A stretch of 64,000 bases of DNA from positions 93,523-157,522 of the forward strand of contig CAYYQK010000001.1 of the NCBI GenBank assembly GCA_964473815.1, given 5' to 3'. The DNA is from an uncultured Candidatus Saccharibacteria bacterium (GTDB lineage Bacteria > Patescibacteriota > Doudnabacteria > UBA920). Below the pieces are notes generated by a model that worked only from the letters and a program-made list of their open reading frames with translations, had not been told where the DNA came from and did no database searches. Within the stretch, counting starts at the first letter, position 1. Each line of letters begins with the position of its first letter. Shown one piece after another: positions 6,493 to 50,316 of the stretch. The translations under genes and the position numbers were made by a program.

Positions 6493-7071
6493 TTGATGGA
6501 AATATCAGAACCAAAAATTATCGCGGACTGTCAGGCAGGTCAAATGGAGACATTTGTATATCTTTACGACAAATATGTCGAAAAAATCTACAAATTCCTC
6601 TATTTCCGGACTTTTGACCAAGAATTGGCCGAAGATATCACTAGCCAGACCTTTTTGAAGGCTATGGATAAAATTGGCTCCTTCAACGGAGAAAAGGGAA
6701 CTTTTCAGGCGTGGCTTTACCAAATTGCTCGCAACCTGCTCATTGATGAATATCGCAAGCAAAAGCCGACTGACAACATTGATGCTCACTTTGATTTAGC
6801 GAGTGACATTAATCTGGAATCGGAAACAGCTGGCAGTATTACCAATGAAAAGTTGCGCGAGTTATTACTTAGCTTGCCAGCGGAAGCGCAAGAACTTGTT
6901 AGTATGCGCTTATGGGATGAAATGTCTTACGCGGAAATCGCCATAATTACTGGCAAGAGCGAAGGCGCATTAAAAATGCAATTCTCCCGCATCGTTGATC
7001 AATTAAAAAAACATTCACACTTGTTGGTGCTATTCGTAGCCCTCCACTTATCATTAACGAAAATTATATGA
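6493..7071 (+). CDS. ECF-type RNA polymerase sigma factor (sigma-70 regions 2 and 4)
   Basis: Region 2: FLYFRTFDQELAEDITSQTFLKAMDKIGSF...WLYQIARNLLIDEYRK. Region 4 helix-turn-helix: SLPAEAQELVSMRLWDEMSYAEIAIITGKSEGALKMQFSR. Confidence 0.75.
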   Translation: MMEISEPKIIADCQAGQMETFVYLYDKYVEKIYKFLYFRTFDQELAEDITSQTFLKAMDKIGSFNGEKGTFQAWLYQIARNLLIDEYRKQKPTDNIDAHFDLASDINLESETAGSITNEKLRELLLSLPAEAQELVSMRLWDEMSYAEIAIITGKSEGALKMQFSRIVDQLKKHSHLLVLFVALHLSLTKII

Positions 7072-8744
7072 TAGAACATACTTCAAATAATGTAGACGAA
7101 CAAGTTTCCAGTATCATGGCAGAATTGGGATTGAATACAGATGATAGCAATGCGCGTAAAATAATCGCTCGTTTGCTTCAGTCAAAGCCAGACGTGGCAA
7201 TTGACTCGCAGTTTATGTCTCAACTCCGCAATGTACTTCAGGCGCACGGCAATGTGGCCGCAGCGCAAACAAAATCTAATCAATCATTTAAATTTACAGT
7301 AATGTTTGTAAACAGAATTCTTGCCTCAGCTTTAATTGTGATGGTGGTATTGGCGGGTGGTGGTTTTTGGTACATCCAAAACAAAACTGACAAACCTCTA
7401 TTTACTTCTCCTGCAGCAAAACAAGTAAACCAAGTTCTCTCTGGTAAGTATGGAGTATCAGAAAAGTCTCAAGAATCTTTCGGGGACTTAAGTAAAGTTT
7501 CTATCATCAATACAAAAAATGCGCCTAGTTTAGCGAACAATAGCACAGCTCCAAACAACAAAGCAGAGACCGCTACCATGAAGGCTTTTGGGGGTGGCGA
7601 TACTAAGTACATTGCCCCAGGCGAACCTTATCCAATTTACGACTACTCATTCCGTTACGACGGCAAGGACTTACCACAATTAGGTGCGAATCAGTTCGTT
7701 CTTCGACGCACATTGCCGCAACAGCAACCAAGTTTGTTTGACCGCATTGTTAGCACACTTAGCTTTGGTCTAATTGATTTAACTAAATTTAGAGATACCA
7801 AAGTACAGTCGCTCTCCTTTGTTGAAGACCATCAATATGGTTACAGTGTTGGTGTTGATATGGTAAATGGCAGTGTGAATTTAAGCCAAAACTGGGAAAA
7901 GTGGCCACAACCAGATTATTCTAAATGCGCGCAACCTGTTCCTGCAGGATCGGCAGAGCAAACTATGCCAGCTTGTGGTCCTCAACCTCTGAAGATTGGC
8001 GATATCCCTGCAGACGATGTGCTATTTAAATCTACCAATGCTTTTCTTGACCAGTACGGAATTTCTCGTGAAGCCTACGGCAATCCAAAAGTAGATAACT
8101 CTTGGCGCATCTATTACGACCAAGCTCCTGAATCTGAAAAGCAAAGCATATACATTCCGGAACAGTTGAATGTAATTTACCCTTTGATTTTGGATGGTCA
8201 ACAGGTGTTTGATGAATCCGGGAATCCATACGGCATGAATGTAACTTATGATGTTCGCAATCAAAAAGTTGCTAGCATTTATGAACTGACTACACATCAA
8301 TACGACCGTTCACAGTACACGGGCGTAACTAACAGCAAGATAATTACCGACTATGCTGAACGCGGTGGCTGGCGCAATCAGATTTATCCACTTGATCGCA
8401 GCATTCCAGAGAACCGTAACGCTAAAAGCGCTGTGTTGAAACTGGACACTCCAACAGTGAAGTTAGTAAAAATGTATTACACAGATCCGAATCAACCTTA
8501 TTCACCAAGCAATAGTGGCGAATTGTATGTACCAGCTTTGGTGTTCCCAATCAAAAACTATCAGGAAGTTAATTACTGGCGTTCTAGTATTATTGTACCG
8601 TTGGTTAAAGATATCTTTGATAGTGATCAAACTGGCCCGCAAACCTATTCTGAACCTGCACAGGGGATGGGTGGTTCAGCTGCGGGAGGTAGTGCTGAGA
8701 TTGAAATAGTATCTCCTTCAGACCTGCCAAAAAATCAAAACTAA
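7068..8744 (+). CDS. Putative anti-sigma factor / single-pass membrane protein with a large extracytoplasmic domain
   Basis: Start overlaps the sigma factor stop (ATGA coupling). Short N-terminal cytoplasmic segment, TM helix ILASALIVMVVLAGGGFWYI, then about 450 aa extracellular. Confidence 0.5.
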   Translation: MIEHTSNNVDEQVSSIMAELGLNTDDSNARKIIARLLQSKPDVAIDSQFMSQLRNVLQAHGNVAAAQTKSNQSFKFTVMFVNRILASALIVMVVLAGGGFWYIQNKTDKPLFTSPAAKQVNQVLSGKYGVSEKSQESFGDLSKVSIINTKNAPSLANNSTAPNNKAETATMKAFGGGDTKYIAPGEPYPIYDYSFRYDGKDLPQLGANQFVLRRTLPQQQPSLFDRIVSTLSFGLIDLTKFRDTKVQSLSFVEDHQYGYSVGVDMVNGSVNLSQNWEKWPQPDYSKCAQPVPAGSAEQTMPACGPQPLKIGDIPADDVLFKSTNAFLDQYGISREAYGNPKVDNSWRIYYDQAPESEKQSIYIPEQLNVIYPLILDGQQVFDESGNPYGMNVTYDVRNQKVASIYELTTHQYDRSQYTGVTNSKIITDYAERGGWRNQIYPLDRSIPENRNAKSAVLKLDTPTVKLVKMYYTDPNQPYSPSNSGELYVPALVFPIKNYQEVNYWRSSIIVPLVKDIFDSDQTGPQTYSEPAQGMGGSAAGGSAEIEIVSPSDLPKNQN

Positions 8745-8765
8745 TCTAGAGTTAGTTATTACAAA

Positions 8766-8795
8766 AAGCTCCTTAACTAATAGGGAGCTTTTTGA
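8766..8795 (+). terminator. Rho-independent terminator after the anti-sigma gene
   Basis: Hairpin agctcctta/actaa/tagggagct followed by TTTTT. Confidence 0.55.
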
Positions 8796-8802
8796 TTATT
8801 AT

Positions 8803-8830
8803 TGACAAAAACCCCAGAAATTGATATATT
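8803..8830 (+). promoter_or_regulatory. Sigma-70-like promoter for the GC-rich ORF 8889
   Basis: TTGACA (8803-8808), 16-nt spacer, TATATT (8825-8830). Strong SD AAGGAGGTG at 8872-8880, 8 nt before the GTG start. Confidence 0.5.
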
Positions 8831-8888
8831 CTGATATTGTCCGAGATGGACTATTGTACTTATTACATCAAAAGGAGGTGAAAAAAGT

Positions 8889-11003
8889 GTGAGCTACCGA
8901 ATACCTACTAGGCTCGAAGATCTAGATCTAAAAGCCATGAGCATAGCTCAGTTAGGTGAATATCTATTCGAGATCGATGCCATTCAGGCAAGACGGTTTC
9001 GTAAGCTGGCTGATGAGGTTCGGGAGATTGCTTTTGATCCCATTTTGAATCATCTCCTTGCTTGTCAAAAGATGGATGTTCTTCCGCAAAAAGATGCTGT
9101 CAGAGAAGTGATTGATGACGCACAAAACGGGCGCTCGTTTCACGATGGGCGTAAGTTACAATATCGACTAGATTCGTACGTAAGACCTGAAGAAATAGAG
9201 GAGAGCACAGAAGACGATATGAGAAGGAACGGAGCAGTATGGAAGAAGGTGTCTGGTATTGAAATTTCATCAAGTAACCAGCTCTTTCTTTTGGTGAAAC
9301 CTAAACATGAAGCAACGTTTGTGGAGTGGCTGGGCAAAACACCCAATGTGATCGTGAAGTCAACCGATTTCGTTAAGACTTGCGGTGGCTTCAAAAGTAC
9401 GGAACGCAACGTATGGTCACTTGCTCGGCGGGATGAGTTTTCAAAGGCCGTGCGAAACCAGCTTAATCCCAAAATTGGTCCCATCCAATTTAAATACTTT
9501 GATCACCCCATCGCCTTAGCGCGCGCTGTGGCGGATAAATTACTTAAGGAATTGCCCAGCGAAGTCCTGGCGAGACTCGAAGAAAGGCAGCAAGTATTTT
9601 CTGTCCCTGCGGTGAATAACGCCGTAGGTTTACCGCCGCATCCAGTGGCGCAACCAAAGGAGAAAGCAAAGATGATACGAACACACGAAGAAGTTTTAGA
9701 TCAGCTGCCGCGGTGGATCTTTGCGAAAGCAAAAGGTACCACTGGATGGCAGCTGGAGTTTGAGCGGTTGTGGAATTTCACCAGAGACCACGCTGACTTC
9801 GCTGGGGTGAATTTGGCGGAGTTTACTTCGGCCATGTTTCACGCCCTATGTCTTACGAGCAAAATGCCGAGCGATACAACCAAGCACCTAATATTCTATC
9901 TCATGGATGTTAATGGTTGGGGTCGGAAGGATAAGGACCTGGTGGTTAAAGCTCTTCATAACCGAGGTTTCCAGAGTGTCAATGAATCGATCCTCGAGCT
10001 CGCCATGAGTCAGTATGTTCCTTCGGAACTCGCCGTCGGGCGGGACTCGGAGAATTCAGAAAGGTCCGCTTCAGTTGAAGGTGATGCCGTATCGAACGAC
10101 TTTACTCGTCCGAAGGTGGAAGAATTTATGGTCGACCTCGATTCGATGGACTTCTCGTCGATGAAGCTTACCGAGATGGCGCGGGTATTTCTGACACCTA
10201 ACGGTGAACTGATCGAAAACTTCCACACCACCAAGGACTTGTTTGAGTACATCTCGGAGAAGCATCCGGGTATCAAACTTGGCAGCTTTACGTCCACCTT
10301 CTATGCTGTGGCTCGGAAGCAAAAGAGCCCGAACGGATCCAAACCCGAAACTGCGAAAGGGACTAAACCACAGACGCCGCGAGGGTCGAGATTTGATGAG
10401 GTGAAGTCTGACCAGGTGAAGGCTGGTGAAGGGTCGGTGCTGACCATCCACCAAATATTGCAGCAGTACATGAATCCGGATGGTTCTTATCCGGCATCGC
10501 ATCCGACTCGACTCGACTTCATAAAGCTGGTGAATCAGATCAATCCCGAGATCCAAAGAGTCACCATTCTAAATTCCTTGGCAGATTTTCGCAGAAAACT
10601 TCGGAATGGCCAGATTGTTATGGAGCAGAGATCGCCGGAGGTCGAGCCTGAATCGAGAATGGAGACCGGGGAGGAGTTGGAGCCTGGCGCCGAAACTCAG
10701 GAGGCATTCGATCCTTCGGAAGGGCTCGATAAAACTTTCGACGAAGAACCTGAACCGGATCAGTCTGCCAACGAAGAGGCCTCTGCAACGCCAGCAATCA
10801 TCGCTCCTGAGCGAGAAATCGTTCCTGAGCCGATCAAGGCGGTGGAAAGCAGTGATGGCGGATCTGAACTGGAGAGGCTTAAGGCCAAGATCGCTGCGGG
10901 ACGGGATGTGTACGACTTTCTCGGGAATCATCCGGAGTTCCTCGAGATGTACGTTCGGTTCAAAGCAACGCATCCAAATGTAAGTCTGTTCGAAGAGAAC
11001 TGA
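8889..11003 (+). CDS. Hypothetical 704-aa soluble protein with an acidic C-terminal region; GC-rich foreign-looking gene
   Basis: GTG start with a consensus SD. GC clearly higher (about 53%) than flanks, producing several long antisense ORFs. No TM helices. Acidic tract EPESRMETGEELEPGAETQEAFDPSEGLDKTFDEEPEPDQSANEE. No recognisable family. Confidence 0.6.
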   Translation: MSYRIPTRLEDLDLKAMSIAQLGEYLFEIDAIQARRFRKLADEVREIAFDPILNHLLACQKMDVLPQKDAVREVIDDAQNGRSFHDGRKLQYRLDSYVRPEEIEESTEDDMRRNGAVWKKVSGIEISSSNQLFLLVKPKHEATFVEWLGKTPNVIVKSTDFVKTCGGFKSTERNVWSLARRDEFSKAVRNQLNPKIGPIQFKYFDHPIALARAVADKLLKELPSEVLARLEERQQVFSVPAVNNAVGLPPHPVAQPKEKAKMIRTHEEVLDQLPRWIFAKAKGTTGWQLEFERLWNFTRDHADFAGVNLAEFTSAMFHALCLTSKMPSDTTKHLIFYLMDVNGWGRKDKDLVVKALHNRGFQSVNESILELAMSQYVPSELAVGRDSENSERSASVEGDAVSNDFTRPKVEEFMVDLDSMDFSSMKLTEMARVFLTPNGELIENFHTTKDLFEYISEKHPGIKLGSFTSTFYAVARKQKSPNGSKPETAKGTKPQTPRGSRFDEVKSDQVKAGEGSVLTIHQILQQYMNPDGSYPASHPTRLDFIKLVNQINPEIQRVTILNSLADFRRKLRNGQIVMEQRSPEVEPESRMETGEELEPGAETQEAFDPSEGLDKTFDEEPEPDQSANEEASATPAIIAPEREIVPEPIKAVESSDGGSELERLKAKIAAGRDVYDFLGNHPEFLEMYVRFKATHPNVSLFEEN

Positions 11004-11029
11004 CTGTAGTTCACGCACTTCACACGCTA

Positions 11030-11073
11030 AAACGGGTACAGGAGCAAACGCTCTTGTACCCGTTTATTTTTTT
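11030..11073. terminator. Bidirectional intrinsic terminator between convergent genes
   Basis: 16-bp stem aaacgggtacaggagc / gctcttgtacccgttt with one G-U pair, followed by a TTTTTTT run. Confidence 0.6.
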
Positions 11074-12889
11074 ATTTATCTAAGTCGCTTTTTTTGATGA
11101 AGTCCGTTGGCATTTCAATAGTTTTGACTGTGCCAATATTTTTGGATTCAGTTTCAATTTTGAGTTCCGCATCAAAATTTAGTTGCTTGATTACTTCCAT
11201 GGCGATTTTGTAAAAATCATCTTCGATTTTTGAGTCTTCCTGCTTGATAGTTGATTCACTTGTGCCAGGTTGATTCGCGAATTCTGCCGGGATTCCTTTT
11301 TCCGTAAGCGCAACTTCGCCTGATTTCATTCCGGCCGTGGCTTGACCAAGACAAAATTCAATTTTATAACTTTGCGGTGAGACCTGAGTGTACCAATAAG
11401 TGTTGTAATAATCAGTACAAGTTCCATCGGGTGGAGTAGGGGAAGCGGGATACTTTTGTATAAAGCCGGCCTCTATCACTCCTACAGGCTGTCCGTCTTT
11501 TGCTTCTGGATAATGACCATTTGCTTCATAGTATAACTCGACTGCGGACGAAATACTTCTGGCATCTGAGACGCGACGTGCGTCGCGAGCCTTGGCATCT
11601 GTATTTTTTATTTGGTCTTTTGGATTTAGAATTCCCGGTTTGTTAATTGCATCTTGAAATGCTTGTAAAGTTTTTGATACAGAAATAGCATTCAATGTTA
11701 GCTGGCTCTTATACATTTTATGGTTTGTCACACCAACCCAAATTTCATAATTTTTAAATTCAATTTTATCTACGATTGCGTTAGCAATATCTTTGGATTG
11801 CTGCTTAAATTTGCTGTCCGCTAAACTTCCTTCATCAATAGAGTCTTCAACATACTTATGAAATCTGTCTTTGTTAAGAGCTAAAGAATAATGCGCAACT
11901 ACATGACCGTCTATGTATGTGAGTCCATCCAATTGCTTTATATCAAACAAGCGATTTTCTTTGAGCAGTTTGACTGTACCAACATCGCGTGAATCGTAAA
12001 ACGCAGATTTAATATCACTACGGATAGTATCGATGTCTTTTTTGTCGGTAGATTTAATCCACTTCCCTTTGCCTGGAGCAACTTCATGGCTTCCTAAAAT
12101 GGCATCAACAGTTTTTTGGATATTGTCGTTATAGTCAAATTTTCCAAAAGCTTCACTGTCATTAAGCTTTATGTCAACATTGCCGGAATATTCTTTGGCA
12201 TCGTTTGTGAGAGAGAGATCTACGTGAGTATCGGTTTGTGGTGCATCTTCATCTTTTACATTCAAATAAGCATTCACATTCCCGGCGATAGTTAAATCGG
12301 AGATTTTAAATGAATACTGGCTATCGTATTGATTGAGCTCTTCGTCTGTAAAAATACCAAACGCTTTAGCAAAATTTGAAGGCTTAAACTGATAACTCCC
12401 AGAATCAGTGTATGTAATACTTAGCTTACTATCTTGAGTTTCCTTTAAACTGCTATCTACCATTTGCACCCAAACTTTGTTTTGGAAATCTTCACCCATC
12501 GAAGTCTTGCCCATTCCATAAACAACATAGGCCGAGGCTATAAGAGCAATTACTACCAAAATCAAAACACCAGGAATAATGAGAATTAGTTTTGAATGAA
12601 GAAAACGGCTAAAAAACGATCTGGCTGGTGGTGGGGGTGGTGTCGATGATGTAGGGGGAGCGGGCGGGGTTGGAGTTGGTGGAGCGGGTGGAGTTGGCGG
12701 TGGCGGTGTCGGAGGAGTGGAAGGCATGGGCTTCAACGGAGCCGGTGGCGGTGTCGGTGGCGGTGTCGGTGATTTAGATGCGGGCGCAGCGACACTCGCT
12801 GGTTTAAATGCAGAGCTTGGAATCGGTGGTGCGAGCGGCACCGATGGTTTTGGTTGCTGCATTTTAGGATCCAAGTTTTGATTTTCCAT
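11072..12889 (-). CDS. Membrane protein with a Pro-rich N-terminus, one TM helix and a C-terminal pseudopilin (GspG-like) motif
   Basis: Start set at internal ATG 12889 (MENQNLDPK) because the longer ORF overlaps msrA. PTPPP repeats; TM LILIIPGVLILVVIALIASAYVVY. C-terminal motif DARRVSDARSISSAVELYYEANGHYPEA resembles type II secretion pseudopilin cores. Confidence 0.55.
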   Translation of the reverse strand: MENQNLDPKMQQPKPSVPLAPPIPSSAFKPASVAAPASKSPTPPPTPPPAPLKPMPSTPPTPPPPTPPAPPTPTPPAPPTSSTPPPPPARSFFSRFLHSKLILIIPGVLILVVIALIASAYVVYGMGKTSMGEDFQNKVWVQMVDSSLKETQDSKLSITYTDSGSYQFKPSNFAKAFGIFTDEELNQYDSQYSFKISDLTIAGNVNAYLNVKDEDAPQTDTHVDLSLTNDAKEYSGNVDIKLNDSEAFGKFDYNDNIQKTVDAILGSHEVAPGKGKWIKSTDKKDIDTIRSDIKSAFYDSRDVGTVKLLKENRLFDIKQLDGLTYIDGHVVAHYSLALNKDRFHKYVEDSIDEGSLADSKFKQQSKDIANAIVDKIEFKNYEIWVGVTNHKMYKSQLTLNAISVSKTLQAFQDAINKPGILNPKDQIKNTDAKARDARRVSDARSISSAVELYYEANGHYPEAKDGQPVGVIEAGFIQKYPASPTPPDGTCTDYYNTYWYTQVSPQSYKIEFCLGQATAGMKSGEVALTEKGIPAEFANQPGTSESTIKQEDSKIEDDFYKIAMEVIKQLNFDAELKIETESKNIGTVKTIEMPTDFIKKSDLDK

Positions 12890-25819: not shown

Positions 25820-25836
25820 ATAGCAGATAAATGAAA

Positions 25837-25868
25837 AAGCCTTGCTCACTGTCGTGGGTAAGGCTTTT
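25837..25868. terminator. Possible bidirectional terminator hairpin between convergent genes
   Basis: Stem aagcctt / aaggctt with a 16-nt loop and a short T-run. Weak. Confidence 0.35.
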
Positions 25869-25896
25869 ACGTAGTTGCAGTTTGAGTTTTATTACT

Positions 25897-26364
25897 CTAG
25901 GCGATCCATCTCGCCAAGTTCACGGGCTCGACCTCGGCACCGGGGGTCAGAAACTCGACTTTAGGGAAGAGTTCTTTGAGCCGATCGACGTCATGGCCGT
26001 TTTCGACCACTTCTTTTACGAAACTGGCCATTTCTCCGCATCCTCCCATAATCACAGGGACTACGCGGCCATTGATGTGGTACCGGCTGGTAGGCGAGGT
26101 CGTAAAAGTGTATACATAGACGTTCGGATTGATCTCCCTGGCCGCCTTTGCGATGGAGTCTGCGTTGGGCATGTCGGGATCATACGTATAGTCGCTGGAG
26201 ATTACCAGTAACTCTTCATTAGGGTTTTCCTGAACGAAATCGATCACTTCCTCAGCCCAGCCGGTTACAGTGACACTCTTGTTTTGAATTAATCCCAGAT
26301 CCTCAAGCGCTTGCTGTGATGGTGTGCGGCCCGACGATGATGACTGAAATACTACTGCTTTCAT
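25897..26364 (-). CDS. Hypothetical protein (possible flavodoxin-like fold); GC-rich singleton
   Basis: SD AAGGAGA 7 nt before the ATG. Starts MKAVVFQSSSSGRTP, reminiscent of flavodoxin-like NAD(P)H-dependent reductases. GC about 50%. The overlapping antisense ORF 25831..26211 is judged spurious. Confidence 0.45.
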   Translation of the reverse strand: MKAVVFQSSSSGRTPSQQALEDLGLIQNKSVTVTGWAEEVIDFVQENPNEELLVISSDYTYDPDMPNADSIAKAAREINPNVYVYTFTTSPTSRYHINGRVVPVIMGGCGEMASFVKEVVENGHDVDRLKELFPKVEFLTPGAEVEPVNLARWIA

Positions 26365-27070: not shown

Positions 27071-27460
27071 ATGGCTCGTATTGCCGGAGTAAATATTCCG
27101 AACGAAAAAAGAATCGAAGCATCACTTCAGTACATCTATGGTGTTGGCCCAACCTTGGCGAAGCGCGCGTTAAGCGAAACCAAGATTAGCGCTGACATTC
27201 GTACCAAAGATTTAACTGAAGCTGATCTAAATAAATTACGTGAATTTATTGATAAGAACTTCAAGACCGAAGGTAACCTTCGCCAGGAAGTATTGCTGAA
27301 CATTAAGCGCCTTAAGGAAATTGGATCTTATCGCGGAATGCGTCACAGCCGCTCTTTGCCGGTTCGTGGACAACGCACCAAGACTAATTCCCGTACCCGT
27401 CACGGCAACGTTCGCCGCACTGCAGGTTCAGGACGTAAGAAGGCAGCAGAAAAGACCTAA
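27071..27460 (+). CDS. rpsM: 30S ribosomal protein S13
   Basis: [34 protein letters not shown]... with a C-terminal basic tail. Confidence 0.9.
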
Positions 27461-27552
27461 TCATTAGGGGTCCTGTCAGCAGATAATTTTTTTCTTCGCG
27501 ACATAAGTCGACTCAGAAAAAAATTACCCTGCTGCCACCCCACCAAATTATT

Positions 27553-28074
27553 ATGAAATTACTAGAAGAAGATATTATAACTCAAAACGCTTCTGATGCT
27601 GCTGATACAGCTATGGAAAGCGATGTTGCTGCACAGGTTTCTGCTGAATTAGCAGCTGCTGACAGCTCTAAAGACGGCGCTGCTGCTCCAAAGATCAAAG
27701 GTAGCAAAAAGAAGAAGTCGAAAATCAAAATTCCTAAAGGAAAGATTTTCATCAACTCTACTTATAACAACACTATCATTGCTGCAACTGACCCATCTGG
27801 GAATGTATTTGCTTGGGGTAGTGCTGGTAAAGCTGGTTTTAAGGGAAGCAAGAAATCAACACCTTATGCTGGTGGTAAGACTATGGAAGATTTGTTGGCG
27901 CGTATTAAAGATCGCGGTTTACAGGAAGTGGAAATTTTTATCAAAGGAATTGGAACTGGACGCGAAAGCGCTATTCGTGCTTTGCAAAGCTCTGGTTTAA
28001 CAGTTTTGACCATTAAGGACCGCACGCCTTCACCTCACGGTGGCGTTCGCCAGAAGAAGGTGCGCCGCGTTTAG
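27553..28074 (+). CDS. rpsK: 30S ribosomal protein S11 with an N-terminal low-complexity extension of about 45 aa
   Basis: The S11 core starts at KGKIFINSTYNNTIIAATDPSGNVFAWGSAG... and is preceded by an acidic/Ala-rich extension. Confidence 0.85.
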   Translation: MKLLEEDIITQNASDAADTAMESDVAAQVSAELAAADSSKDGAAAPKIKGSKKKKSKIKIPKGKIFINSTYNNTIIAATDPSGNVFAWGSAGKAGFKGSKKSTPYAGGKTMEDLLARIKDRGLQEVEIFIKGIGTGRESAIRALQSSGLTVLTIKDRTPSPHGGVRQKKVRRV

Positions 28075-28094
28075 TTTAACGGCAAAATAAATTT

Positions 28095-28703
28095 ATGAGA
28101 TATACAGGACCAAAAGTTAAAAGAGCCCGCCGTCTCGGCATGGCCTTTACCGATAAAGATGTTCGCATTTTGCAGCGCCGCCCAACCCCTCCGGGTCAAC
28201 ACGGTGCTAGCCGCGCCCGCGTTTCTGAATACGGTTTGCAGCTTCGCGAAAAGCAAAAAGCGAAAATCAATTACGGTGTACAAGAAAAACAATTCTTGCG
28301 TTACTTCGATAAAGCTTTGAACAAGCCAGGTGTAACCGGTGATTTGTTGCTAGAATTCTTAGAACTTCGCCTTGATAACATTGTTTATCGTTTAGGTTTT
28401 GCTGAAACCCGCGCGCAAGCTCGTCAGTTAGTCAGCCATGGATTCTTTGAAGTTAATGGTAAGAAAGTAGATATTCCTTCTTACGCAACCAAGCCCGGTG
28501 ATGTTGTCAGCGTTCGTGAAAACAAGCGCACCAGCAAGTACATGGAAGCTCGCAAAGAAAAGCTGAAGGGCGTACAGCCTCAGGAATGGGTATCACTAGA
28601 AGCCCAAAATTGGTCTGGAAAAGTGTTATCAACACCAACCCCAGAACAAATTGGTAATCAGATCAACACCCAGTTGATCGTTGAACACTACAGTCGTATT
28701 TAA
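28095..28703 (+). CDS. rpsD: 30S ribosomal protein S4
   Basis: MRYTGPKVKRARRLG..., an S4 domain. Confidence 0.9.
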   Translation: MRYTGPKVKRARRLGMAFTDKDVRILQRRPTPPGQHGASRARVSEYGLQLREKQKAKINYGVQEKQFLRYFDKALNKPGVTGDLLLEFLELRLDNIVYRLGFAETRAQARQLVSHGFFEVNGKKVDIPSYATKPGDVVSVRENKRTSKYMEARKEKLKGVQPQEWVSLEAQNWSGKVLSTPTPEQIGNQINTQLIVEHYSRI

Positions 28704-28799
28704 TTAATTTTTAATCAATTAATTGCTTTAAGGGGATCGAAACCACAAGACTATTGGACGTTTGAGAATAACGAGTCCCGCAAAGCAAAGAAGGTTTAT

Positions 28800-29777
28800 A
28801 TGGAACAAATTCCATTACCCAATCAAGCCCAAGCCGTACATTTGGGTGGCAACTCATACGAAGTGACTCTTGAGCCACTTTATCCAGGATATGGTGTTAC
28901 CATTGGTAACGCTATGCGCCGCGTATTGTTGTCTTCCATGCCAGGAGCAGCGGTAACCGCTGTAAAGATCAAGTATGTTGATCACGAATTCTCTACTGTA
29001 CCGAATGTAAAAGAAGATGTGATTCAAATCATTTTGAATCTAAAGCAATTGCGTTTGCGCAGTTTTTCTCGCGAACCAGTGCGCCTTACTTTGCAAGCCA
29101 AAGGTGAAGGTGTAATTACTGCAGAAAATATTTCTGGTAATGACCAGGTAGAAGTAGTAAACAAAGATTTGTACATTTGTACTTTAGATAACAAGAACGC
29201 AGACTTTGACATGGAACTTATTGTTGAACAAGGTCGTGGTTACGTTCCTGTAGAAGCTCGTGATGGCAGCGCCAAGCTCGAAGCTGGCATGTTGGCAATC
29301 GATGCTATCTACACCCCAGTACGCAGTGTTTACTTTGATGTTTCAAACGTTCGTGTTGGTCAAATGACTAACTTCGACAAACTTGTGTTGCGCATGGAGA
29401 CTGACGGTACTATTACTGGTGCTGAAGCAGTAGATATTGCATCACACATTTTAGTGGATCACTTTAGCATGTTGTTTAACAACGAAGGTGCAGCTCGCAT
29501 CGAAATGATGGCTACCCCTTTGGTTGAAGAAGCTCCATCTAGCGAAGTTGAAGATATGGCAGACATGCCAACTTCATTTGATGCTCCAACTGAAAACAGT
29601 GGCACCAGTTTGGATGAATTGAATCTTTCAAACCGCGCTAAAAATGCTTTAACCAAAGCTGGTATTAGCTCTGTAGAAGCTTTGCAAGGTTTGACCAACG
29701 ATGAAATTACTAACACTGCTGGTTTGGGTGAAAAGACTATTTCCGAAATTTTAGAAGTATTAGGACGCAATCAATAA
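28800..29777 (+). CDS. rpoA: DNA-directed RNA polymerase alpha subunit
   Basis: N-terminal dimerisation domain and C-terminal domain (LSNRAKNALTKAGISSVEALQ) in the conserved position between rpsD and rplQ. Confidence 0.9.
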   Translation: MEQIPLPNQAQAVHLGGNSYEVTLEPLYPGYGVTIGNAMRRVLLSSMPGAAVTAVKIKYVDHEFSTVPNVKEDVIQIILNLKQLRLRSFSREPVRLTLQAKGEGVITAENISGNDQVEVVNKDLYICTLDNKNADFDMELIVEQGRGYVPVEARDGSAKLEAGMLAIDAIYTPVRSVYFDVSNVRVGQMTNFDKLVLRMETDGTITGAEAVDIASHILVDHFSMLFNNEGAARIEMMATPLVEEAPSSEVEDMADMPTSFDAPTENSGTSLDELNLSNRAKNALTKAGISSVEALQGLTNDEITNTAGLGEKTISEILEVLGRNQ

Positions 29778-29780
29778 TTT

Positions 29781-30125
29781 ATGAGACACCTTAAGAAGAA
29801 AAAATTTGGTCGGGGAATGGATTCACGTCGCAAATTGTTGCGCTCTTTGGCGAGCTCCGCAATTTTGTACGAACGCATCGAAACCTCTTATTCCAATGCC
29901 CGCGCTGTAAAGCCTTACATTGAACGCCTAATTACTCGGGCTAAAGTAGACTCTTTGCACAATCGTCGTCACTTGTTGTCGAAATTGACCCGCAATGCCG
30001 CTGCTAAAGCCTTGGAAGTTTACGGTCCAAAGTATGCGACACGCAACGGTGGTTATGTACGCATGATGAAATTAAATGATCCGAAAGCCGGCAACTCGAA
30101 AGCGCTGTTGGAATTCGTAGAATAG
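29781..30125 (+). CDS. rplQ: 50S ribosomal protein L17
   Basis: LRSLASSAILYERIETSYSNARAVKPYIERLITRAK. Confidence 0.9.
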   Translation: MRHLKKKKFGRGMDSRRKLLRSLASSAILYERIETSYSNARAVKPYIERLITRAKVDSLHNRRHLLSKLTRNAAAKALEVYGPKYATRNGGYVRMMKLNDPKAGNSKALLEFVE

Positions 30126-30144
30126 GCTGAAAGGATATAAAGAA

Positions 30145-30573
30145 ATGTTAAAGACTCAGAAGATTACATTACCGAAAACTGTGACCCGCACTTGGCACGA
30201 AATTGATGCCTCCGGCGATACCATGGGCCGCGTGGCAACTAAGATTGCTAACTTGCTTCGTGGTAAGCACAAGCGCGATTTTACCCCACACATGGATATG
30301 GGTGATTTTGTTGTGGCTGTAAATGTCGACAAGATGAAATTCACTGGCCGCAAGATTGAACAGAAAAAGTATTATCACCACAGTGGTTACTTGGGTGGCT
30401 TGAAGACTAAGACTTTGAAAGATGAAATTGTCCGCAGTCCAGAGACTGTATTGCGTAAAGCCGTTTTCTCGATGATTGATGATATTAAATTCCGCAAGAA
30501 ATTGTTATCCCGCTTAAAGGTCGTAAAGGGTACAACTCACTCTTACAAGATTGATAAGAAAGGAAGCAAATAA
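30145..30573 (+). CDS. rplM: 50S ribosomal protein L13
   Basis: TWHEIDASGDTMGRVATKIANLLRGKHKRDFTPHMDMGDFVV. Confidence 0.9.
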   Translation: MLKTQKITLPKTVTRTWHEIDASGDTMGRVATKIANLLRGKHKRDFTPHMDMGDFVVAVNVDKMKFTGRKIEQKKYYHHSGYLGGLKTKTLKDEIVRSPETVLRKAVFSMIDDIKFRKKLLSRLKVVKGTTHSYKIDKKGSK

Positions 30574-30575
30574 TT

Positions 30576-31139
30576 ATGGCTGAAAAAGATACAAAAGAAG
30601 TGAAGAAGCCGGTTGCTAAGAAGGCTGTTGCAAAAAAGGTAACTGCACCGCGTAAGCCTGCTCCTAAGCCACAGGCTGAGAAGGTTGAAGCTCCTGTTGT
30701 TGCAGAAACTACAACTGCCGAAGTTGCATTTGCAAAACCAACTATTGCTAAAGGCAAATACGTATTCGCTACTGGTCGCCGTAAAACAGCTGTTGCAAAT
30801 GTGCGTTTGTTTGCTGGAACGAGCGACAGTTTGATTAACAAGAAGAAAATGGATGATTACTTTGGTCAGCCAAATTTGCGCGATGCAGCAATGCGTCCGC
30901 TTGCTTTGACTGGTTTGATGGGTGACTTCCATATTGTTGCTAGCGTAAACGGTGGCGGTATCGCTGCCCAGTCTGAAGCAGTTCGTCATGGAATTGCTCA
31001 AGCCTTGGCTTCGATGAACGCAGACATGAAGACTGTTTTGAAGAAGAATGGTTTTCTAACTCGTGATGACCGCGAAAAAGAACGCAAGAAACCAGGTTTG
31101 CGCCGTGCGCGCCGCGCTCCACAGTGGGCTAAGCGTTAA
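30576..31139 (+). CDS. rpsI: 30S ribosomal protein S9 with a Lys/Ala-rich N-terminal extension of about 55 aa
   Basis: S9 core YVFATGRRKTAVANVRLF...RRARRAPQWAKR preceded by AKKAVAKK repeats. Confidence 0.85.
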   Translation: MAEKDTKEVKKPVAKKAVAKKVTAPRKPAPKPQAEKVEAPVVAETTTAEVAFAKPTIAKGKYVFATGRRKTAVANVRLFAGTSDSLINKKKMDDYFGQPNLRDAAMRPLALTGLMGDFHIVASVNGGGIAAQSEAVRHGIAQALASMNADMKTVLKKNGFLTRDDREKERKKPGLRRARRAPQWAKR

Positions 31140-31360: not shown

Positions 31361-34300
31361 ATGGCCACTCGACCACCTACGCCGGCACAAGCTCGGTATA
31401 GAATGCGCTTTACCGTGCATCAAATTCCTGACCCCGCTCCAAAGCAATTTTTTCACCTTAACCGCATAATGCTTGGGAAGGCGCTAGCTTTTGTGGCGGT
31501 TTTTTCTTTATTACTAAATAGTATCGGAGCTGCGCAAGCTAAGACAGATAAAGTATCAGTCTGTCATAAGACCGGCAATGGATTTCAATTACTGGAAGAT
31601 ATAGCTGATAACGCTTTACCTGGTCACTTAGGCCACGGGGATATTTACCCAGTACCGGCGAATGGCTGTCCTGAGACTCTGCCCGAAAGTACCGCAACCG
31701 TTACAATTGTAAAATATATTGACGGAGTCCCTGCTACAGCTGAACTGGCCCACAGCGCAGAATTTCCTATGACCGCAACCTGGAATGCAACGAATATTGG
31801 TCCTGGCAGTGGTAATTATACCTTAGGTCCGACTGGTTATAACAATAACAACCCCTATCAAGCCACCACATCAGCAATGACAACTGGGGCTAGTTATACA
31901 ACTTCTGAATTAACAAATACCGCTGTAGTCGGTACTAATTGCGAAGGGAATAATGCCTTTGCTTTAAGTGGATATTCATTGGGCAATACTTTGTCGGATG
32001 CAGAATCAGCTTTGGTATCAGTTGATGCTCCTGCTCTAACTAATTTAAGTTCAGATAAATACATTATTGTTTGGAATAAGGATTGTAGTAAAGTTGTACC
32101 GCCGGTGAATGTTGATTTTGAAATTAATAAAGTTTGGGAAGACGCCCAAGGTGCTCCAATTGATGCTCCTAATAACAAGGATGACATTAGTATTACGGTA
32201 AGCCACGATAGCGATTCATTAAATTGTAAATATACGGACGGAAATTTCGGTTGCGATGGAGATGGGGTTTTGAGCGGGCTTTCAACCGATACATTCAATA
32301 TCACTGAGACAGGTGTGCCAGCAGGTTGGTCTGCAGATCCTCAGACTGTGGGGGAAAACATCGCCGCGAATTGTCCGGCAGACGTTGAGGATGGAGATAC
32401 ATGTACTATAACAATCGTCAATAAGCTCAGTTCAATCTCACCATGTAATACAGAGCTGATAATTAATGGCGGCTTTGAAGCGCCGTTGGTAACTGATTCT
32501 AATAATTGGCAATTATTCCCATCAGGTACTGAAAATCTGGGGTGGTCTGCCGATGCCGCCGGTACAACTACTAACGGTAATTTAGAAATACAAGCCGGAG
32601 TCTTTGGCTGGAATGCGCATAGCGGCAACCAATTTGCAGAAGTTGATTCAGATAAATCAATGAGTTATTCACAGGACTTAATCACAGTTCCCGGTGGAAT
32701 TTATACGGTTACTTTGTGGTCATCTCCTCGTCCTGGTCAATCAGCCAGTGAAAATAAAACTGAAGTGAAAGCCGGGGCAACAGTGTTAGATATAATTTCG
32801 GAAGATGGTACTAGCCTAAGCCAAACCAATTGGACAGAGCATACGTATACATTTACGGCAGCAACGCCGATCACTCATTTTAGCCTGACGGATGTAGGGC
32901 CAAGCAATGGTTTGGGTGGCTTATTTGACGATGTAAGCGTTAAGCAGCAATGTGTTTCTCAAGTGACGTTATGTAAAAAGGATAACCACGACAATCCACT
33001 TTCTGGGTGGGAGCTGTATTTGAAAGGTCCAAAAATTGAGACAGTGAATGTGCCTTCAACCAACGGATTGGATGTTTCAACAAGCACATTGCCTGCCGGC
33101 GACTATGCTTTAGAAGCTAGTGGTACCTATGTTTATCGCCCAAACGATCCGAGTGCTTCAATTTCCGATGCGGCGTTTTCTAAAAGACTGCCATCAGATT
33201 CCGTTTATTCCATTGGAACGTCTCAGCCGTGGGTTCGCGTCAATGATTTCCCAAGTCCTTATCAAGGTTACTTAGGAATTCAAGTGGATGATACTAACAA
33301 TTTTGATTGGGGGTCTACCTTTAGCGCCACTCATAATTACACAGGAAATAAAACTTTAGCAGTTGACGGACAAATTAAATTCCGCATATTGGACGATAAC
33401 TATTCTGATAATAGTGGTGATTTGAGCGTTGATATATATCCGATTATCAAAGGCACTACAGGTGATAATGGTTGTGTGACTTTGCCGAATATACAATTTG
33501 ATACCTATACCGTAGGGGAAGTGATGCAGGATGGCTGGAGTAATGTCAGTGGTAATGGAGTGACTGCAGTTATTAATGAAAGCACGGAAAATTATACTGT
33601 AGTTAATCGTTGTGATAGCAATTGTAAATCCACAGTGACGGTTTGTAAGAAGGATAGTAGCGGAAATCCTCTTGCAGGGTGGGATGTGTTCTTGAAGGGC
33701 TCATTGCTTGAAACTGTTTCTGTAAATTCTAATAATGTTGCTGGCGCAGATTCAACGAATAGTCTTGTTGCCGGTCAAAAGTATGCTGTGGATGTCTCGG
33801 GAACCTGGCAAAACCGGGGTTTTGAGACCGTAGATGCCAGTTATACATCCCCCGATGGTTGGACCACCGTACTGGCAGCTCCGCAAGGTGGGTTTCCTGA
33901 CAATTTGCTGGAAATGCAAATTGACCACAACTTTATCGATTGGGGAGCGTATGCCAATGATCATAAATATCACACTGTGATAACTGGAACCGGAGCACCA
34001 GTAAACTTCGGAGTGTTTGATATTAATGACGATACTTATACTCCAGACCCTAGCTGGTACGGAGACAATATCGGTAATCTGACAATAAAAATTTATCCTA
34101 TTTACGAAGGCGTAACTACAGCCCAAAATGGCTGTGCGACTTTGGAAAATGTACCTTTTGGTAATTATGCTTTGGGGGAAGTGATGCAAGATGGTTGGGT
34201 AAACGAAAGCGGTGATGGTACATCGGTTCATGTCGTTAAACCAATCGAGCCGGGCCCAAACACCGAAATAAACCCATTCACTCTTGTAAATTCCTGTCAG

Positions 34301-36037
34301 TCTGAATCTTGCAGGACAGTTCCTCAGCTGCATCTAGTTAAAGTGGTCTGTTCTAGTTTTGGCGACATCAAAGGAAATGCAAATGCTGATACATACGACG
34401 CCACTGGCGGCAAATATAATTTGTTTAGCAACTATCCAAACTTTGACGGCGTGGTTGAACCTATTAGCCCCGCTGAAATTCCGGAAAATTGTAATACTCA
34501 GTCAGGCTGGAACTTTAAGCTTTCTACCGATATCGAACAAAATGATAATTCCCAAACAGTTACTACTGGAAACTCAGGAGAATATGTTACCCCGATTTCC
34601 GGCAATGACTCTGGATTAAATCCTGTATTGCAAACAGCTATTGCAAACGGTTCGTTATACGTAAGTGAAGTCACTCAAGACGGGTATGATTTTGGTGCTT
34701 TGCGCTGTTATAACGACGCTCTCAATGGCGATAATAAAGAATTAATTAATTTGGGCGAAAGCCAACCGGCAAATATTTATTGTATTGCATACAATGTCAG
34801 CCAGGTAAAACCTTGTGTGGTGGAGCCGATCACAAATGTATTAAGCAGTACTGATACACAATTCTTGGGACTTAAAGAAGGTGGGTCAGCACCGGCTGAT
34901 CTTTCCGATCCAACTGATTATCCATCTGGCACAGCTGGACCAGCTCAAACAGCAGGTCCAACAGGGTATCCTGGGGCATGGGATGGCTCAGCGAACGATT
35001 CTAGCGTCTCTGGTGCAGTTTATATCAGCAATGACTCTACTCAACCAACCAACAGCGGCGGACTCGGCTACGACGGTTCGGTGGATTCGTGGCGATTATT
35101 TAGTCAGACGTTCACAATCCCGGCGGGGGCAGTGAGTATTTCCACTCCTTCATTGCATTTTGCTGCTGACAACGAAGTCACTGTATTCTTAGATGATGCC
35201 CAAATTGGTACCAGTAATAGTTTTAGTTCTATCACAACAGTTGGACCGATCACTCTAACCGCCGGAACTCACACTTTGAAATTTGCAGTTAAGAATTATG
35301 CATTTGATCAAACTAATAATCCGACAGGAGTAATTTATAAGTTGGATAATATCTCCTACCAATGTAGTAATGGTGGTGGAGATTCAGACAAACACACCAT
35401 TTCCGGAATTGTTTACAATGACAACAACACCCAAAATGGCACATATAACGACGGTGAAGCAGGATTGCCGGGTTGGACTGTGTATATTGATGCAAACGAC
35501 AATGGAACTTTGGATTCTGGAGAAGAAACTACTACTTCCGGTGCAGACGGGCATTATAGCTTTACAAACTTACCATCAGATTGTTATGTAATACGAGAGG
35601 TCGTGAATGACGGTTGGAATCAAACCGGTCCGGTTGGTCCACCTGCCAATAAATATCAATTTGGTATTGGTTCGGGAAATTGTGATGAGTCCCTGACTAT
35701 TGTAGGAAAAGTTTTAGGGTCGGTTATTCATACGGCAAATGCCTTAACGATCAACCCTGACCCAACCGATGCTAATTTTGGGAACATAATCACCACTAAT
35801 AATACTGGTGGAAGTAGTGGAAGTAGCAGAACAAACATCCCACAGGGACGAGTATTGGGAGATACCACAAATATTCCTTACATTGACCCTGGTACCAATG
35901 GCCAAGTTTTGGGTGCATCCACAACCTTGCCTGTAACTGGGAACACTATGAATATACTTTGGGCTTTATTGGCATTAACTGCTGTTATTGTCTTACCAGC
36001 AAAAATCGTTCTCAAAATGAAGAAAGAAAATTCTTAA
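31361..36037 (+). CDS. Giant (about 1558 aa) LPXTG-anchored surface protein / adhesin with Cna-B/SdrD-B-like repeat domains
   Basis: Signal peptide MLGKALAFVAVFSLLLNSIGAAQA (an alternative start at ATG 31469 is possible). Repeated modules include TxCKKDxxxNPLxGW and GCxTLxNxxFxxYxxGEVMQDGW. An SdrD-B-like segment YNDNNTQNGTYNDGEAGLPGWTVYIDANDNGTLDSGEETTTSGADGHYSF. C-terminal sorting signal LPVTG, hydrophobic stretch, then KMKKENS. Confidence 0.75.
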   Translation: MATRPPTPAQARYRMRFTVHQIPDPAPKQFFHLNRIMLGKALAFVAVFSLLLNSIGAAQAKTDKVSVCHKTGNGFQLLEDIADNALPGHLGHGDIYPVPANGCPETLPESTATVTIVKYIDGVPATAELAHSAEFPMTATWNATNIGPGSGNYTLGPTGYNNNNPYQATTSAMTTGASYTTSELTNTAVVGTNCEGNNAFALSGYSLGNTLSDAESALVSVDAPALTNLSSDKYIIVWNKDCSKVVPPVNVDFEINKVWEDAQGAPIDAPNNKDDISITVSHDSDSLNCKYTDGNFGCDGDGVLSGLSTDTFNITETGVPAGWSADPQTVGENIAANCPADVEDGDTCTITIVNKLSSISPCNTELIINGGFEAPLVTDSNNWQLFPSGTENLGWSADAAGTTTNGNLEIQAGVFGWNAHSGNQFAEVDSDKSMSYSQDLITVPGGIYTVTLWSSPRPGQSASENKTEVKAGATVLDIISEDGTSLSQTNWTEHTYTFTAATPITHFSLTDVGPSNGLGGLFDDVSVKQQCVSQVTLCKKDNHDNPLSGWELYLKGPKIETVNVPSTNGLDVSTSTLPAGDYALEASGTYVYRPNDPSASISDAAFSKRLPSDSVYSIGTSQPWVRVNDFPSPYQGYLGIQVDDTNNFDWGSTFSATHNYTGNKTLAVDGQIKFRILDDNYSDNSGDLSVDIYPIIKGTTGDNGCVTLPNIQFDTYTVGEVMQDGWSNVSGNGVTAVINESTENYTVVNRCDSNCKSTVTVCKKDSSGNPLAGWDVFLKGSLLETVSVNSNNVAGADSTNSLVAGQKYAVDVSGTWQNRGFETVDASYTSPDGWTTVLAAPQGGFPDNLLEMQIDHNFIDWGAYANDHKYHTVITGTGAPVNFGVFDINDDTYTPDPSWYGDNIGNLTIKIYPIYEGVTTAQNGCATLENVPFGNYALGEVMQDGWVNESGDGTSVHVVKPIEPGPNTEINPFTLVNSCQSESCRTVPQLHLVKVVCSSFGDIKGNANADTYDATGGKYNLFSNYPNFDGVVEPISPAEIPENCNTQSGWNFKLSTDIEQNDNSQTVTTGNSGEYVTPISGNDSGLNPVLQTAIANGSLYVSEVTQDGYDFGALRCYNDALNGDNKELINLGESQPANIYCIAYNVSQVKPCVVEPITNVLSSTDTQFLGLKEGGSAPADLSDPTDYPSGTAGPAQTAGPTGYPGAWDGSANDSSVSGAVYISNDSTQPTNSGGLGYDGSVDSWRLFSQTFTIPAGAVSISTPSLHFAADNEVTVFLDDAQIGTSNSFSSITTVGPITLTAGTHTLKFAVKNYAFDQTNNPTGVIYKLDNISYQCSNGGGDSDKHTISGIVYNDNNTQNGTYNDGEAGLPGWTVYIDANDNGTLDSGEETTTSGADGHYSFTNLPSDCYVIREVVNDGWNQTGPVGPPANKYQFGIGSGNCDESLTIVGKVLGSVIHTANALTINPDPTDANFGNIITTNNTGGSSGSSRTNIPQGRVLGDTTNIPYIDPGTNGQVLGASTTLPVTGNTMNILWALLALTAVIVLPAKIVLKMKKENS

Positions 36038-36051
36038 CTTTAAGTAAACAT

Positions 36052-36087
36052 ACAACTACCCCGGGGAGGGGTAGTTGTATGTTTTTT
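36052..36087 (+). terminator. Rho-independent terminator after the LPXTG protein gene
   Basis: 11-bp perfect stem acaactacccc / ggggtagttgt, loop gggga, then TGTTTTTT. Confidence 0.7.
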
Positions 36088-36151
36088 GTGGATAATTATT
36101 TTATAAAAGTGGGTCGCGTGGCGTTGGTTTACACGCCGGTGAAGTTTAATT

Positions 36152-36748
36152 ATGCCTAAGATATTAATTAAAATATTATCGGGTTTCTTAATTTTATTGC
36201 TGTTGGCAATAATTGCTTATGTTGTTTTAAACGCAACGTATTTTTCAAAGCAATTTGAATTTAAATTTAATCCACCAGTCCCAGCTCCGCCAGTAAATCA
36301 AAATAATATCAAAGGCGACCCTAATCAAGTAGAAATTCCCAGCTTGGGAATCAAAGCGCCAATTGTAGAACCTATATCAAACAAAGAGACAGATTTTCAA
36401 GAAGCATTAAAAACAGGCGTGGTTCATTTCCCCGGCTCTGCAAAAGTAGGGGAAGAAGGTAATATGTATATCTTTGGACACTCGTCGGACTTTGCGTTCA
36501 AAGCAGGTTCGTATAAAACCGTGTTCGCATTATTACCTAACATCAAAAATAATGCTGAGATTATCGTTACAAACAATGAGGGTACAAAATTTACTTATAT
36601 TGTAACAGGTCAGAAGATAGTTCGTTCGAATGATACGTCAGTGTTAGATCAAAATACTCACGGAAAAAAAATATTAACCCTGCAAACATCGTACCCGATT
36701 GGAACTGCGCTAAAAAGATATATTGTAATTGCAGAGTTCAAAGAATAG
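36152..36748 (+). CDS. Sortase-family protein with Ser in place of the catalytic Cys (TLQTS instead of TLxTC)
   Basis: N-terminal TM anchor. Sortase His motif NMYIFGHSSDF. Beta-strand region LTLQTSYPIGTALKRYIV aligns to the LTLITCTPYG....R motif of class C/E sortases with a conserved Arg. The codon is TCG (Ser). Confidence 0.6.
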   Translation: MPKILIKILSGFLILLLLAIIAYVVLNATYFSKQFEFKFNPPVPAPPVNQNNIKGDPNQVEIPSLGIKAPIVEPISNKETDFQEALKTGVVHFPGSAKVGEEGNMYIFGHSSDFAFKAGSYKTVFALLPNIKNNAEIIVTNNEGTKFTYIVTGQKIVRSNDTSVLDQNTHGKKILTLQTSYPIGTALKRYIVIAEFKE

Positions 36749-36929: not shown

Positions 36930-37202
36930 ATGACTAAGTCAGAGACTTTGCAAACCTTGGCGGAAACAACTGGCCGTACCAAGAAAGAAGTAAGCGAAAT
37001 GTTGGATGCTATGGTAGCTCTAGCTTACAAAGAAACTAAGAAGAGTGGTGAATTCACTATTCCTGGTCTAGGTAAACTAAAGAAGAAGCACCGCGCTGCA
37101 CGCGAAGGTCGCAATCCAGCAACTGGCGCTACTATCCAAATTCCAGCTAAGACTGTTGTAAAGTTTACAGTTGCAAAAGCTGCAAAGGACTCTATCCTTT
37201 AA
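36930..37202 (+). CDS. hup: DNA-binding protein HU
   Basis: MTKSETLQTLAETTGRTKKEVSEMLDAMVALAYKE...GRNPATGATIQIPAKTVVKFTVAKAAKDSI. Confidence 0.85.
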   Translation: MTKSETLQTLAETTGRTKKEVSEMLDAMVALAYKETKKSGEFTIPGLGKLKKKHRAAREGRNPATGATIQIPAKTVVKFTVAKAAKDSIL

Positions 37203-41547: not shown

Positions 41548-41593
41548 ACAGTGATTACTTTACCATTAAAAAAACTGGGTATATAATAAAAAT

Positions 41594-50282: not shown

Positions 50283-50316
50283 GCTTTTAAAAGCACTATT
50301 TTATTTTTGGTTTAAA

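Follow-up and report, generated by a model that had tools for sequence, protein, structure and literature searches.

The subject of this analysis is an open reading frame (ORF) of 704 amino acids (aa) in a 64,000-nucleotide stretch of contig CAYYQK010000001.1, hereafter the window, to which all positions given without a locus name refer. Our results indicate, with a probability of roughly 60%, that this ORF is a resident, fast-evolving gene encoding a modular protein with odd codon usage, and not a fresh import. A preliminary description, made from the letters of the window, had regarded it as a GC-rich ORFan, acquired horizontally with its own expression signals and inserted between core genes. 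While GC-richness and self-contained signals mimicked a fresh import, synteny and the conservation of these signals in related genomes point to a resident gene. The encoded protein comprises the domains D1, D2 and D3, two repeats (R1 and R2), an acidic linker and a C-terminal helical hairpin, and D1, its head domain, ties a poorly known low-GC lineage to a small protein that is highly conserved and occurs in hundreds of genomes of Acidobacteriota.

Chromosomal locus, expression signals and composition

In the two loci that are syntenic with the window, L003 (encoding homologue P0004) and L088 (encoding P0074), the family gene lies upstream of msrA-msrB. The gene order in L088 runs from the family gene through a short convergent gene, msrA, msrB, a 116-aa gene, a YgjP-like gene, DUF7282, GT4 and Wzy_C to an S41 peptidase gene; L003 has the same order up to DUF7282 and the beginning of GT4, at which its contig stops, with Polysacc_synt and CTP_transf upstream. 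The flanking proteins are 59–90% identical between the window and these relatives, while the family protein retains only about 28% identity. In L088, the nearest genome by its flanks (90% identity for the 116-aa gene and 81% for the YgjP-like gene), positions 10001–10975 encode a 324-aa short form without D2, D3 and the acidic linker, which shows the loss or gain of domains at a fixed locus. The 704-aa protein changes much more rapidly than its genomic surroundings, one relative having lost domains, and the slot upstream of msrA-msrB is an ancestral position of the family gene in a low-GC lineage (the homologue-bearing contigs L002, L003 and L006 have about 37–41% GC, and L088 about 43%). The immediate neighbours vary between genomes, so that the family gene is the stable element at this site; both flanking genes, previously called core genes, lack a Pfam domain, and the syntenic relatives have either a poorly conserved counterpart or none.

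A third related locus, L087, is a 950-bp contig from an independent Joint Genome Institute (JGI) sample, with 75% nucleotide identity to the window from the end of the gene through the terminator into the convergent gene, the terminator being kept together with the downstream gene. This match excludes a chimeric junction, which the preliminary description had named as a finding that would refute its reading. The presence/absence comparison it had suggested found the gene in all three related loci available, with no empty site.

The self-contained expression signals, formerly read as a sign of import, are conserved across the family. Homologues in five other genomes are all monocistronic and carry a strong promoter, Shine-Dalgarno and terminator cassette: the layout TTGACA-17-TGnTAT(A/T)TT is found upstream of those in L002, L003, L005 and L088, and the homologues have a 5' untranslated region (5'UTR) of about 50 nt, often with the element (T)AGTACTTA(A/T)TA, a GGAGG Shine-Dalgarno sequence and each its own terminator. 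The signals are therefore a family trait and no sign of import. At the locus there are no flanking repeats, no tRNA and no integrase or transposase; the 704-aa protein had no phage or plasmid match (in tblastn as well) and no viral-contig or mobile-element match, and PADLOC gave no match for the ORF, both of its neighbours or the five homologues. The only portion resembling a higher-GC lineage, D1 with its Acidobacteriota relatives, has native composition, and the earlier proposal of a phage or high-GC host donor is not borne out. Together, the same locus in relatives, the conserved signals and the lack of mobility marks argue that no foreign module of a single gene was inserted here in the recent past.

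The ORF is a real gene, monocistronic and with strong signals for expression, and its earlier delimitation (704 aa, GTG start), as well as its description as a single-gene transcription unit, held (Table 1). The family N-terminus, MSYxxPxRLEDLDL, starts exactly at the GTG codon, and the terminator of the upstream 558-aa gene shows that an independent transcription unit begins here. The promoter matches the consensus at 11 of 12 positions and is the top site in a scan of the window from 6 to 14 kb; both of its boxes had been reported correctly, but the spacer measures 17 nt and not 16. The Shine-Dalgarno sequence AAGGAGGTG, rightly described as strong, is the only exact copy in the window. The 16-bp hairpin of the shared terminator was confirmed and folds on both strands (−27.9 kcal/mol, z = −8.1 for the stem at 11030–11065; −23.4 kcal/mol on the minus strand, where the tail has only 4 U). 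The 5'UTR has no significant fold (z = 0.05), and an Rfam search gave no match. The element (T)AGTACTTA(A/T)TA occurs about 20 nt 5' of the Shine-Dalgarno sequence of family genes, despite proteins that are only about 28% identical, and may be a regulatory site.

The antisense ORFs noted before are also present (114, 95, 161 and 149 aa). The two longest lie in the mirrored frame, in which stops arise only from sense TTA, CTA or TCA codons, and the gene contains 20 such codons against about 32 expected from background codon usage. We rejected the antisense ORFs as real genes, because they follow from this scarcity and are a by-product of codon usage.

The gene is GC-rich, as had been claimed, although the preliminary description gave about 53% against 40%, where the gene has 49.5% and the window 40.2%; a value of 52% is reached in the last 1 kb alone. 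Compared with the 62 other ORFs of the window, its GC content has z = 2.0 and its GC content at third codon positions (GC3) z = 2.35, and three short ORFs in the window are as GC-rich. The codon-usage comparison that had been recommended shows usage atypical for the genome, the composition expected of a horizontally acquired islet, with the L002 orthologue biased likewise. The excess is a bias towards G-ending codons confined to codons ~136–704, where GC3 is about 0.56 as a whole against 0.38. Codons 1–135 have native GC3 (0.38–0.40), codons 136–704 reach 0.5–0.71 with a third-position G frequency (G3) of 0.33 against a background of 0.18, and GC content drops abruptly to 36% directly after the stop codon. 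The preferred codons are CGG, TCG, CCG, GCG, GGG, GAG, CTG/CTC, GTG and ATC. Since the ribosomal-protein genes of the window avoid these codons and make the opposite choice, expression-linked codon adaptation was rejected as the source of the high GC3.

This bias recurs in at least one deeply divergent orthologue. The L002 gene, which is non-syntenic and stands in a 37%-GC context, shows the GC3 step behind D1 as well and prefers the same codons (GC3 z = 4.0, G3 z = 3.5). The family genes in L005 and L087 are GC-rich as well, and those in L003, L006 and L088 are no composition outliers. This distribution indicates that the anomaly is genuine and old, and that it belongs to the gene or allele without extending to the whole family. 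It may reflect a maintained bias or an old partial allele replacement anchored in D1, and the parallel G-ending bias of distant orthologues in AT-rich genomes is a concrete puzzle of gene-specific composition.

Protein family, domain architecture and the D1 domain

The ORFan claim did not survive an exhaustive phmmer search against 1.84 billion representative proteins, which gave 75 matches at E ≤ 1e-3, with four reaching E ≤ 1e-30. Four full-length relatives (P0003–P0006) measure 667–808 aa at 27–32% identity, P0007 is a 68-aa fragment 74% identical to the C-terminus of the 704-aa protein, P0074 is the 324-aa short form, and about 65 proteins of 70–135 aa match residues ~20–85 at 40–58% identity. 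A word-index homology search returned the protein itself or nothing, even from alignments without the low-complexity region or containing the homologues; as it was blind where phmmer found 75 proteins, an ORFan call from a fast search alone is wrong here. Searches of Pfam, NCBIfam, PHROGs, PADLOC and PDB sequences with the protein, its homologues and D1 profiles gave no match, and none of the six modules matches a curated family or a solved fold, which agrees with the earlier statement that no motif could be assigned. Metagenome and viral contig scans with a mid-domain, the full protein and D1 found no relatives.

The family of the 704-aa protein is rare and undescribed, consists of modular cytoplasmic proteins and is known from only about six or seven sequences; one architecture is common to its long members. 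We define the family by a D1 head, at least one R repeat, a C-terminal PExL hairpin, a monocistronic unit and a TTGACA-17-TGnTATxTT promoter, all of which are found in the 704-aa protein and its gene. The family is new only in the sense of being unclassified.

The AlphaFold2 (AF2) model resembles beads on a string with disordered acidic linkers and has 356 residues at a predicted local distance difference test score (pLDDT) above 90. The core of D1 (residues 19–85) is also found in small stand-alone proteins, and D2 is mildly basic and conserved in four long homologues. The R repeats, which are mildly basic by domain charge as well, align locally with each other at z = 5 and occur in two or three copies in homologues. 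The acidic C-terminal third described earlier is real, with a net charge of −14 overall, −20 over residues 581–660 and −12 to −26 in the linkers of homologues; the hairpin that follows has the invariant residues P682, E683 and L685. The protein is soluble, as had been stated, in that the maximum of its Kyte-Doolittle hydropathy, KD(19), is 1.24 against 3.13 in the neighbouring membrane protein, and neither a secretion signal nor a transmembrane (TM) segment was seen by hydropathy, the N-terminus being polar. The family alignment shows no conserved catalytic-looking residue constellation in D2, D3 or R. A CheY-like receiver was considered for D2 and rejected (Foldseek E 0.6–3.6, probability ≤ 0.41; no Response_reg Pfam match), and in the family alignment strands 1 and 3 end without a conserved Asp.

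A GTDB scan with D1 gave 384 loci, of which the best 80 are nearly all labelled as Acidobacteriota (Blastocatellia, Pyrinomonadaceae, Chloracidobacterium). The acidobacterial genes (L007–L086) share a GTG start and a strong Shine-Dalgarno sequence with the 704-aa ORF and encode hypothetical proteins of ~82 aa that are homologous to D1 residues ~20–85 at 50–61% identity and mostly end in ..LLAA or ..AA. An HU gene lies directly upstream in 36 of 39 acidobacterial loci, at a gap of 350–600 bp, and itself follows Ham1/RdgB (e.g. L008 9350–10225). Within D1, C59 and E73 are invariant and D30, Q33, R36, H55, R72, D76, D77 and G81 near-invariant, and these residues are common to the small proteins and the 704-aa protein. 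The small proteins consist of a single domain, whereas the 704-aa protein adds five domains and an acidic linker, and its D1 differs from theirs at two near-invariant positions (P51, N54). The D1 of every long member is ~45% similar to the small proteins, about as similar as to other long members, and this equality gives no sign of recent transfer from Acidobacteriota. D1 is also found fused to a GNAT domain and to a Zn-ribbon; a 194-aa Zn-ribbon+D1 protein (L089 482–1066) belongs to a dense block of genes on one strand, KTSC and ParB_N/HTH_ParB among them, that looks like part of a phage or plasmid. The D1 family of Acidobacteriota is conserved and unannotated and deserves a study of its own.

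Several known folds were compared with D1 and rejected. A likeness to sigma-70 region 2 appears at the level of motifs (D1 EIAtEGIIrHLrAC.rMD, sigma AEDLvQEtFlra...fd), and PF04542 gave weak matches in 3 of 67 D1 proteins (best E 0.007), all below cut-off; hhalign gave a probability of 1% (P = 0.05), and Foldseek placed sigma chains at E 7–9 with a root-mean-square deviation of 15–18 Å. The D1-only model used for Foldseek (pLDDT 80) had a best PDB match of E 3.1, among generic helical bundles and no histones, which does not support a histone, HU or other nucleoid-associated fold. An H-x3-C motif was the lead to CsoR/RcnR, but there was no PF02583 match among 67 members at E ≤ 10 and no CsoR chain in the Foldseek matches, and only one Cys is conserved. 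An acyl carrier protein (ACP)-like fold had neither Foldseek nor Pfam support, and a match to an HD-domain tail (PgpH) at E 0.29 was judged to be chance. A GTAC operator is not enriched upstream of acidobacterial D1 genes (8 of 79 loci, ~21 expected), and the 605-aa gene of the window has no homology to the ~610-aa gene downstream of acidobacterial D1.

Proposed function and competing explanations

Tentatively, and at odds well below even, we propose that the 704-aa protein serves in the cytoplasm as an adaptor or scaffold that is abundant and non-enzymatic and has D1 as its docking head. D1 would attach to a conserved partner in the cell, cargo (nucleic acid or protein) would be bound by D2, which is mildly basic, and by the three-helix R repeats, and the acidic disordered segment with the C-terminal hairpin would give spacing, self-association or autoinhibition. 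The stand-alone D1 proteins of Acidobacteriota, HU-adjacent and often with an ssrA-like ..LAA end, suggest a proteolytically controlled factor linked to the nucleoid or to transcription. More speculative, and less probable again, is a combined picture in which D1 is an undescribed, small and strongly conserved regulatory domain, stand-alone with a degron-like tail in Acidobacteriota and fused in the low-GC lineage, that docks on a core machine (nucleoid, RNA polymerase or protease), with the 704-aa protein as a lineage-specific abundant scaffold; the rare G-ending codons, retained by deeply divergent orthologues, would then come from throttled translation or from a hot spot of recombination or gene conversion with its anchor in D1.

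Two known systems offer analogies. The RNA polymerase delta subunit of Firmicutes consists of a HARE-HTH N-terminal domain and a polyanionic tail; the 704-aa protein may be compared with it in having a small N-terminal module of helices joined to a long disordered stretch of acidic character, and signals that suggest abundance in the cytoplasm, but it has no HARE-HTH or other Pfam match, its ORF is about four times larger, and it has extra domains and a structured C-terminus. PopZ/HubP-type proteins are acidic hub scaffolds, and the likeness here would lie in a disordered, acidic linker rich in Pro and Glu that precedes a short and conserved, putatively oligomerising helical module at the C-terminus; in contrast to them, the N-terminal domains are unrelated, and no Pfam family was matched by sequence or profile.

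Several observations weigh against a resident gene with this function. The GC3 excess is missing in both syntenic relatives (L003 and L088) and in L006, so it is no uniform family trait and allele-level transfer is possible. L003, L088 and L087 are the only three related loci for the empty-site comparison. The gene uses codons that are rare in ribosomal-protein genes, which is odd for an 'abundant' protein, and HU is not adjacent in the window but lies at 36930–37196. The proposed function rests on architecture and weak context, no domain having a sequence, profile or fold match.

The most serious competitor, though an improbable one, is a partial xenologous replacement, in which the gene from codon ~136 to the stop was overwritten by a divergent allele of a GC-richer relative, with D1 as the single homologous anchor (homology-facilitated illegitimate recombination). 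It would explain the sharp rise of GC3 behind D1, the sudden fall back to 36% GC past the stop codon, the codon usage foreign to the genome and the native composition of the syntenic orthologues, and it would agree with L088, nearest by its flanks, having the most divergent family member. However, the deeply divergent L002 orthologue has the same step at the same place, so that two events with an identical breakpoint would be required. The 3' part is no closer than D1 to any sampled subfamily, and no donor lineage was found. The closer relative L087 is already GC-rich, so any replacement was not recent. A recent acquisition of the whole gene, promoter and terminator included, from a donor of high GC content (a phage or a host bacterium), with insertion between residents, is far less probable still and is largely refuted by synteny. 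The raised GC3 and atypical codons, the self-contained signals and the best D1 matches, in Acidobacteriota loci averaging 52% GC, would fit such an import; they are outweighed by the orthologues at the same locus, by signals that are common family-wide, by a D1 that has native GC3 and is no closer to Acidobacteriota than that of other long members, and by the lack of repeats, tRNA, integrase and phage, plasmid or viral matches.

A resident gene could also owe its rapid evolution to conflict, as an anti-phage or host-interaction factor, for instance an epibiont effector delivered to the host. Extreme divergence with domain gain or loss amid conserved flanks, the disordered acidic regions, the Zn-ribbon+D1 protein in a ParB-containing, mobile-element-like block and the pilin-like membrane protein next door all lean this way. 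We consider the idea unlikely in view of the lack of PADLOC or PHROG matches, of a secretion signal or TM segment and of partner genes conserved across the loci of this monocistronic gene, and because D1 is highly conserved and chromosomal in Acidobacteriota. The shift of composition within the contig could finally suggest an artefact, either a chimeric assembly or a chance ORF in a non-coding GC-rich stretch. This can practically be dismissed and is already refuted: the identical protein is found on four contigs of 20 kb to more than 200 kb, the 3' junction is kept in the independent JGI sample, full-length homologues keep the domain order, and the AF2 model exceeds pLDDT 90 for 356 residues.

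Feature coordinates and other genes of the window

Table 1. Positions of the 704-aa gene, its expression signals and domains, and other annotated features of the window.
Feature	Position	Strand	Description
ECF sigma factor	6493–7071		overlaps the 558-aa gene by ATGA
558-aa gene	7068–8744		no Pfam match; 32%-identical relative in L003, there without a preceding sigma gene
Terminator of upstream 558-aa gene	8762–8794	+	14-bp stem, then T-rich tail
Promoter	8802–8830	+	TTGACA 8802–8807, 17-nt spacer ending in TGA, TATATT 8825–8830, extended −10 TG 8822–8823
5'UTR motif TTGTACTTATTAC	8854–8866	+	aligns with (T)AGTACTTA(A/T)TA in L002, L003, L005 and L006
Shine-Dalgarno AAGGAGGTG	8872–8880	+	8 nt before GTG; sole exact copy in 64 kb
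Coding sequence	8889–11003	+	704 aa, GTG start; coding-type GC1>GC3>GC2; homologues P0003–P0007, P0074
D1	8916–9227	+	residues 10–113; helical head domain; pLDDT 90–98; GC3 0.39
D2	9255–9584	+	residues 123–232; alpha/beta; motifs (F)GG(C/F), RxVWS; pLDDT >90; net +4
D3	9672–10034	+	residues 262–382; helical; motifs LPxWIF, EFTxAMFxAL; pLDDT 84–97; family-conserved
R1	10131–10328	+	residues 415–480; ~60-aa three-helix repeat, copy 1; pLDDT 92–95; GC3 0.71
R2	10431–10622	+	residues 515–578; three-helix repeat, copy 2; basic terminal helix (…FRRKLRNG)
Acidic linker	10623–10859	+	residues 579–657; disordered, Pro/Glu-rich; pLDDT 31–37
C-terminal helical hairpin	10860–11000	+	residues 658–697 (construct to 704); motif PE(F/V)L; pLDDT 86–89
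Shared intrinsic terminator	11030–11075	both	16-bp stem (11030–11065), 4-nt loop, T-run
Convergent 605-aa gene	11072–12889	−	Pro-rich N-terminus, one TM helix, pilin-like C-terminal segment (DARRVSDARSISSAVELYYEANGHYP)
GC-rich 126-aa ORF	25831–26211		51% GC, no Pfam match

On the upstream side, the gene for an extracytoplasmic function (ECF) sigma factor and the 558-aa gene look like a sigma/anti-sigma pair (6493–8744). On the downstream side, about 100 aa of the convergent 605-aa protein match parts of RDD-annotated genes in L002 and L088, and the one in L002 lies directly upstream of the family gene encoding P0003. The ORF listing extends the 605-aa gene to 13147, where it overlaps msrA.

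Farther along the window, a ribosomal block S13-S11-S4-RpoA-L17 is followed directly by L13-S9 (27071–31139); upstream of S13, infA, rpmJ and secY are missing, and a 599-aa ORF and the 126-aa ORF, without Pfam matches, stand in their place. A 1558-aa SpaA/SdrD-like surface protein followed by a sortase (31361–36748) points to surface anchoring of the Gram-positive type, and the window also holds many genes without a Pfam match. This content would fit a small-genome lineage with a Gram-positive-type envelope. Two low-GC stretches (40639–42427 and 50227–54752; 30–35% GC) deviate further below the mean than the 704-aa ORF lies above it. They contain LPG_synthase_C-like, AAA_17, dCMP deaminase-like and methyltransferase genes together with ORFs without a Pfam match, and their genes may be acquired or accessory.

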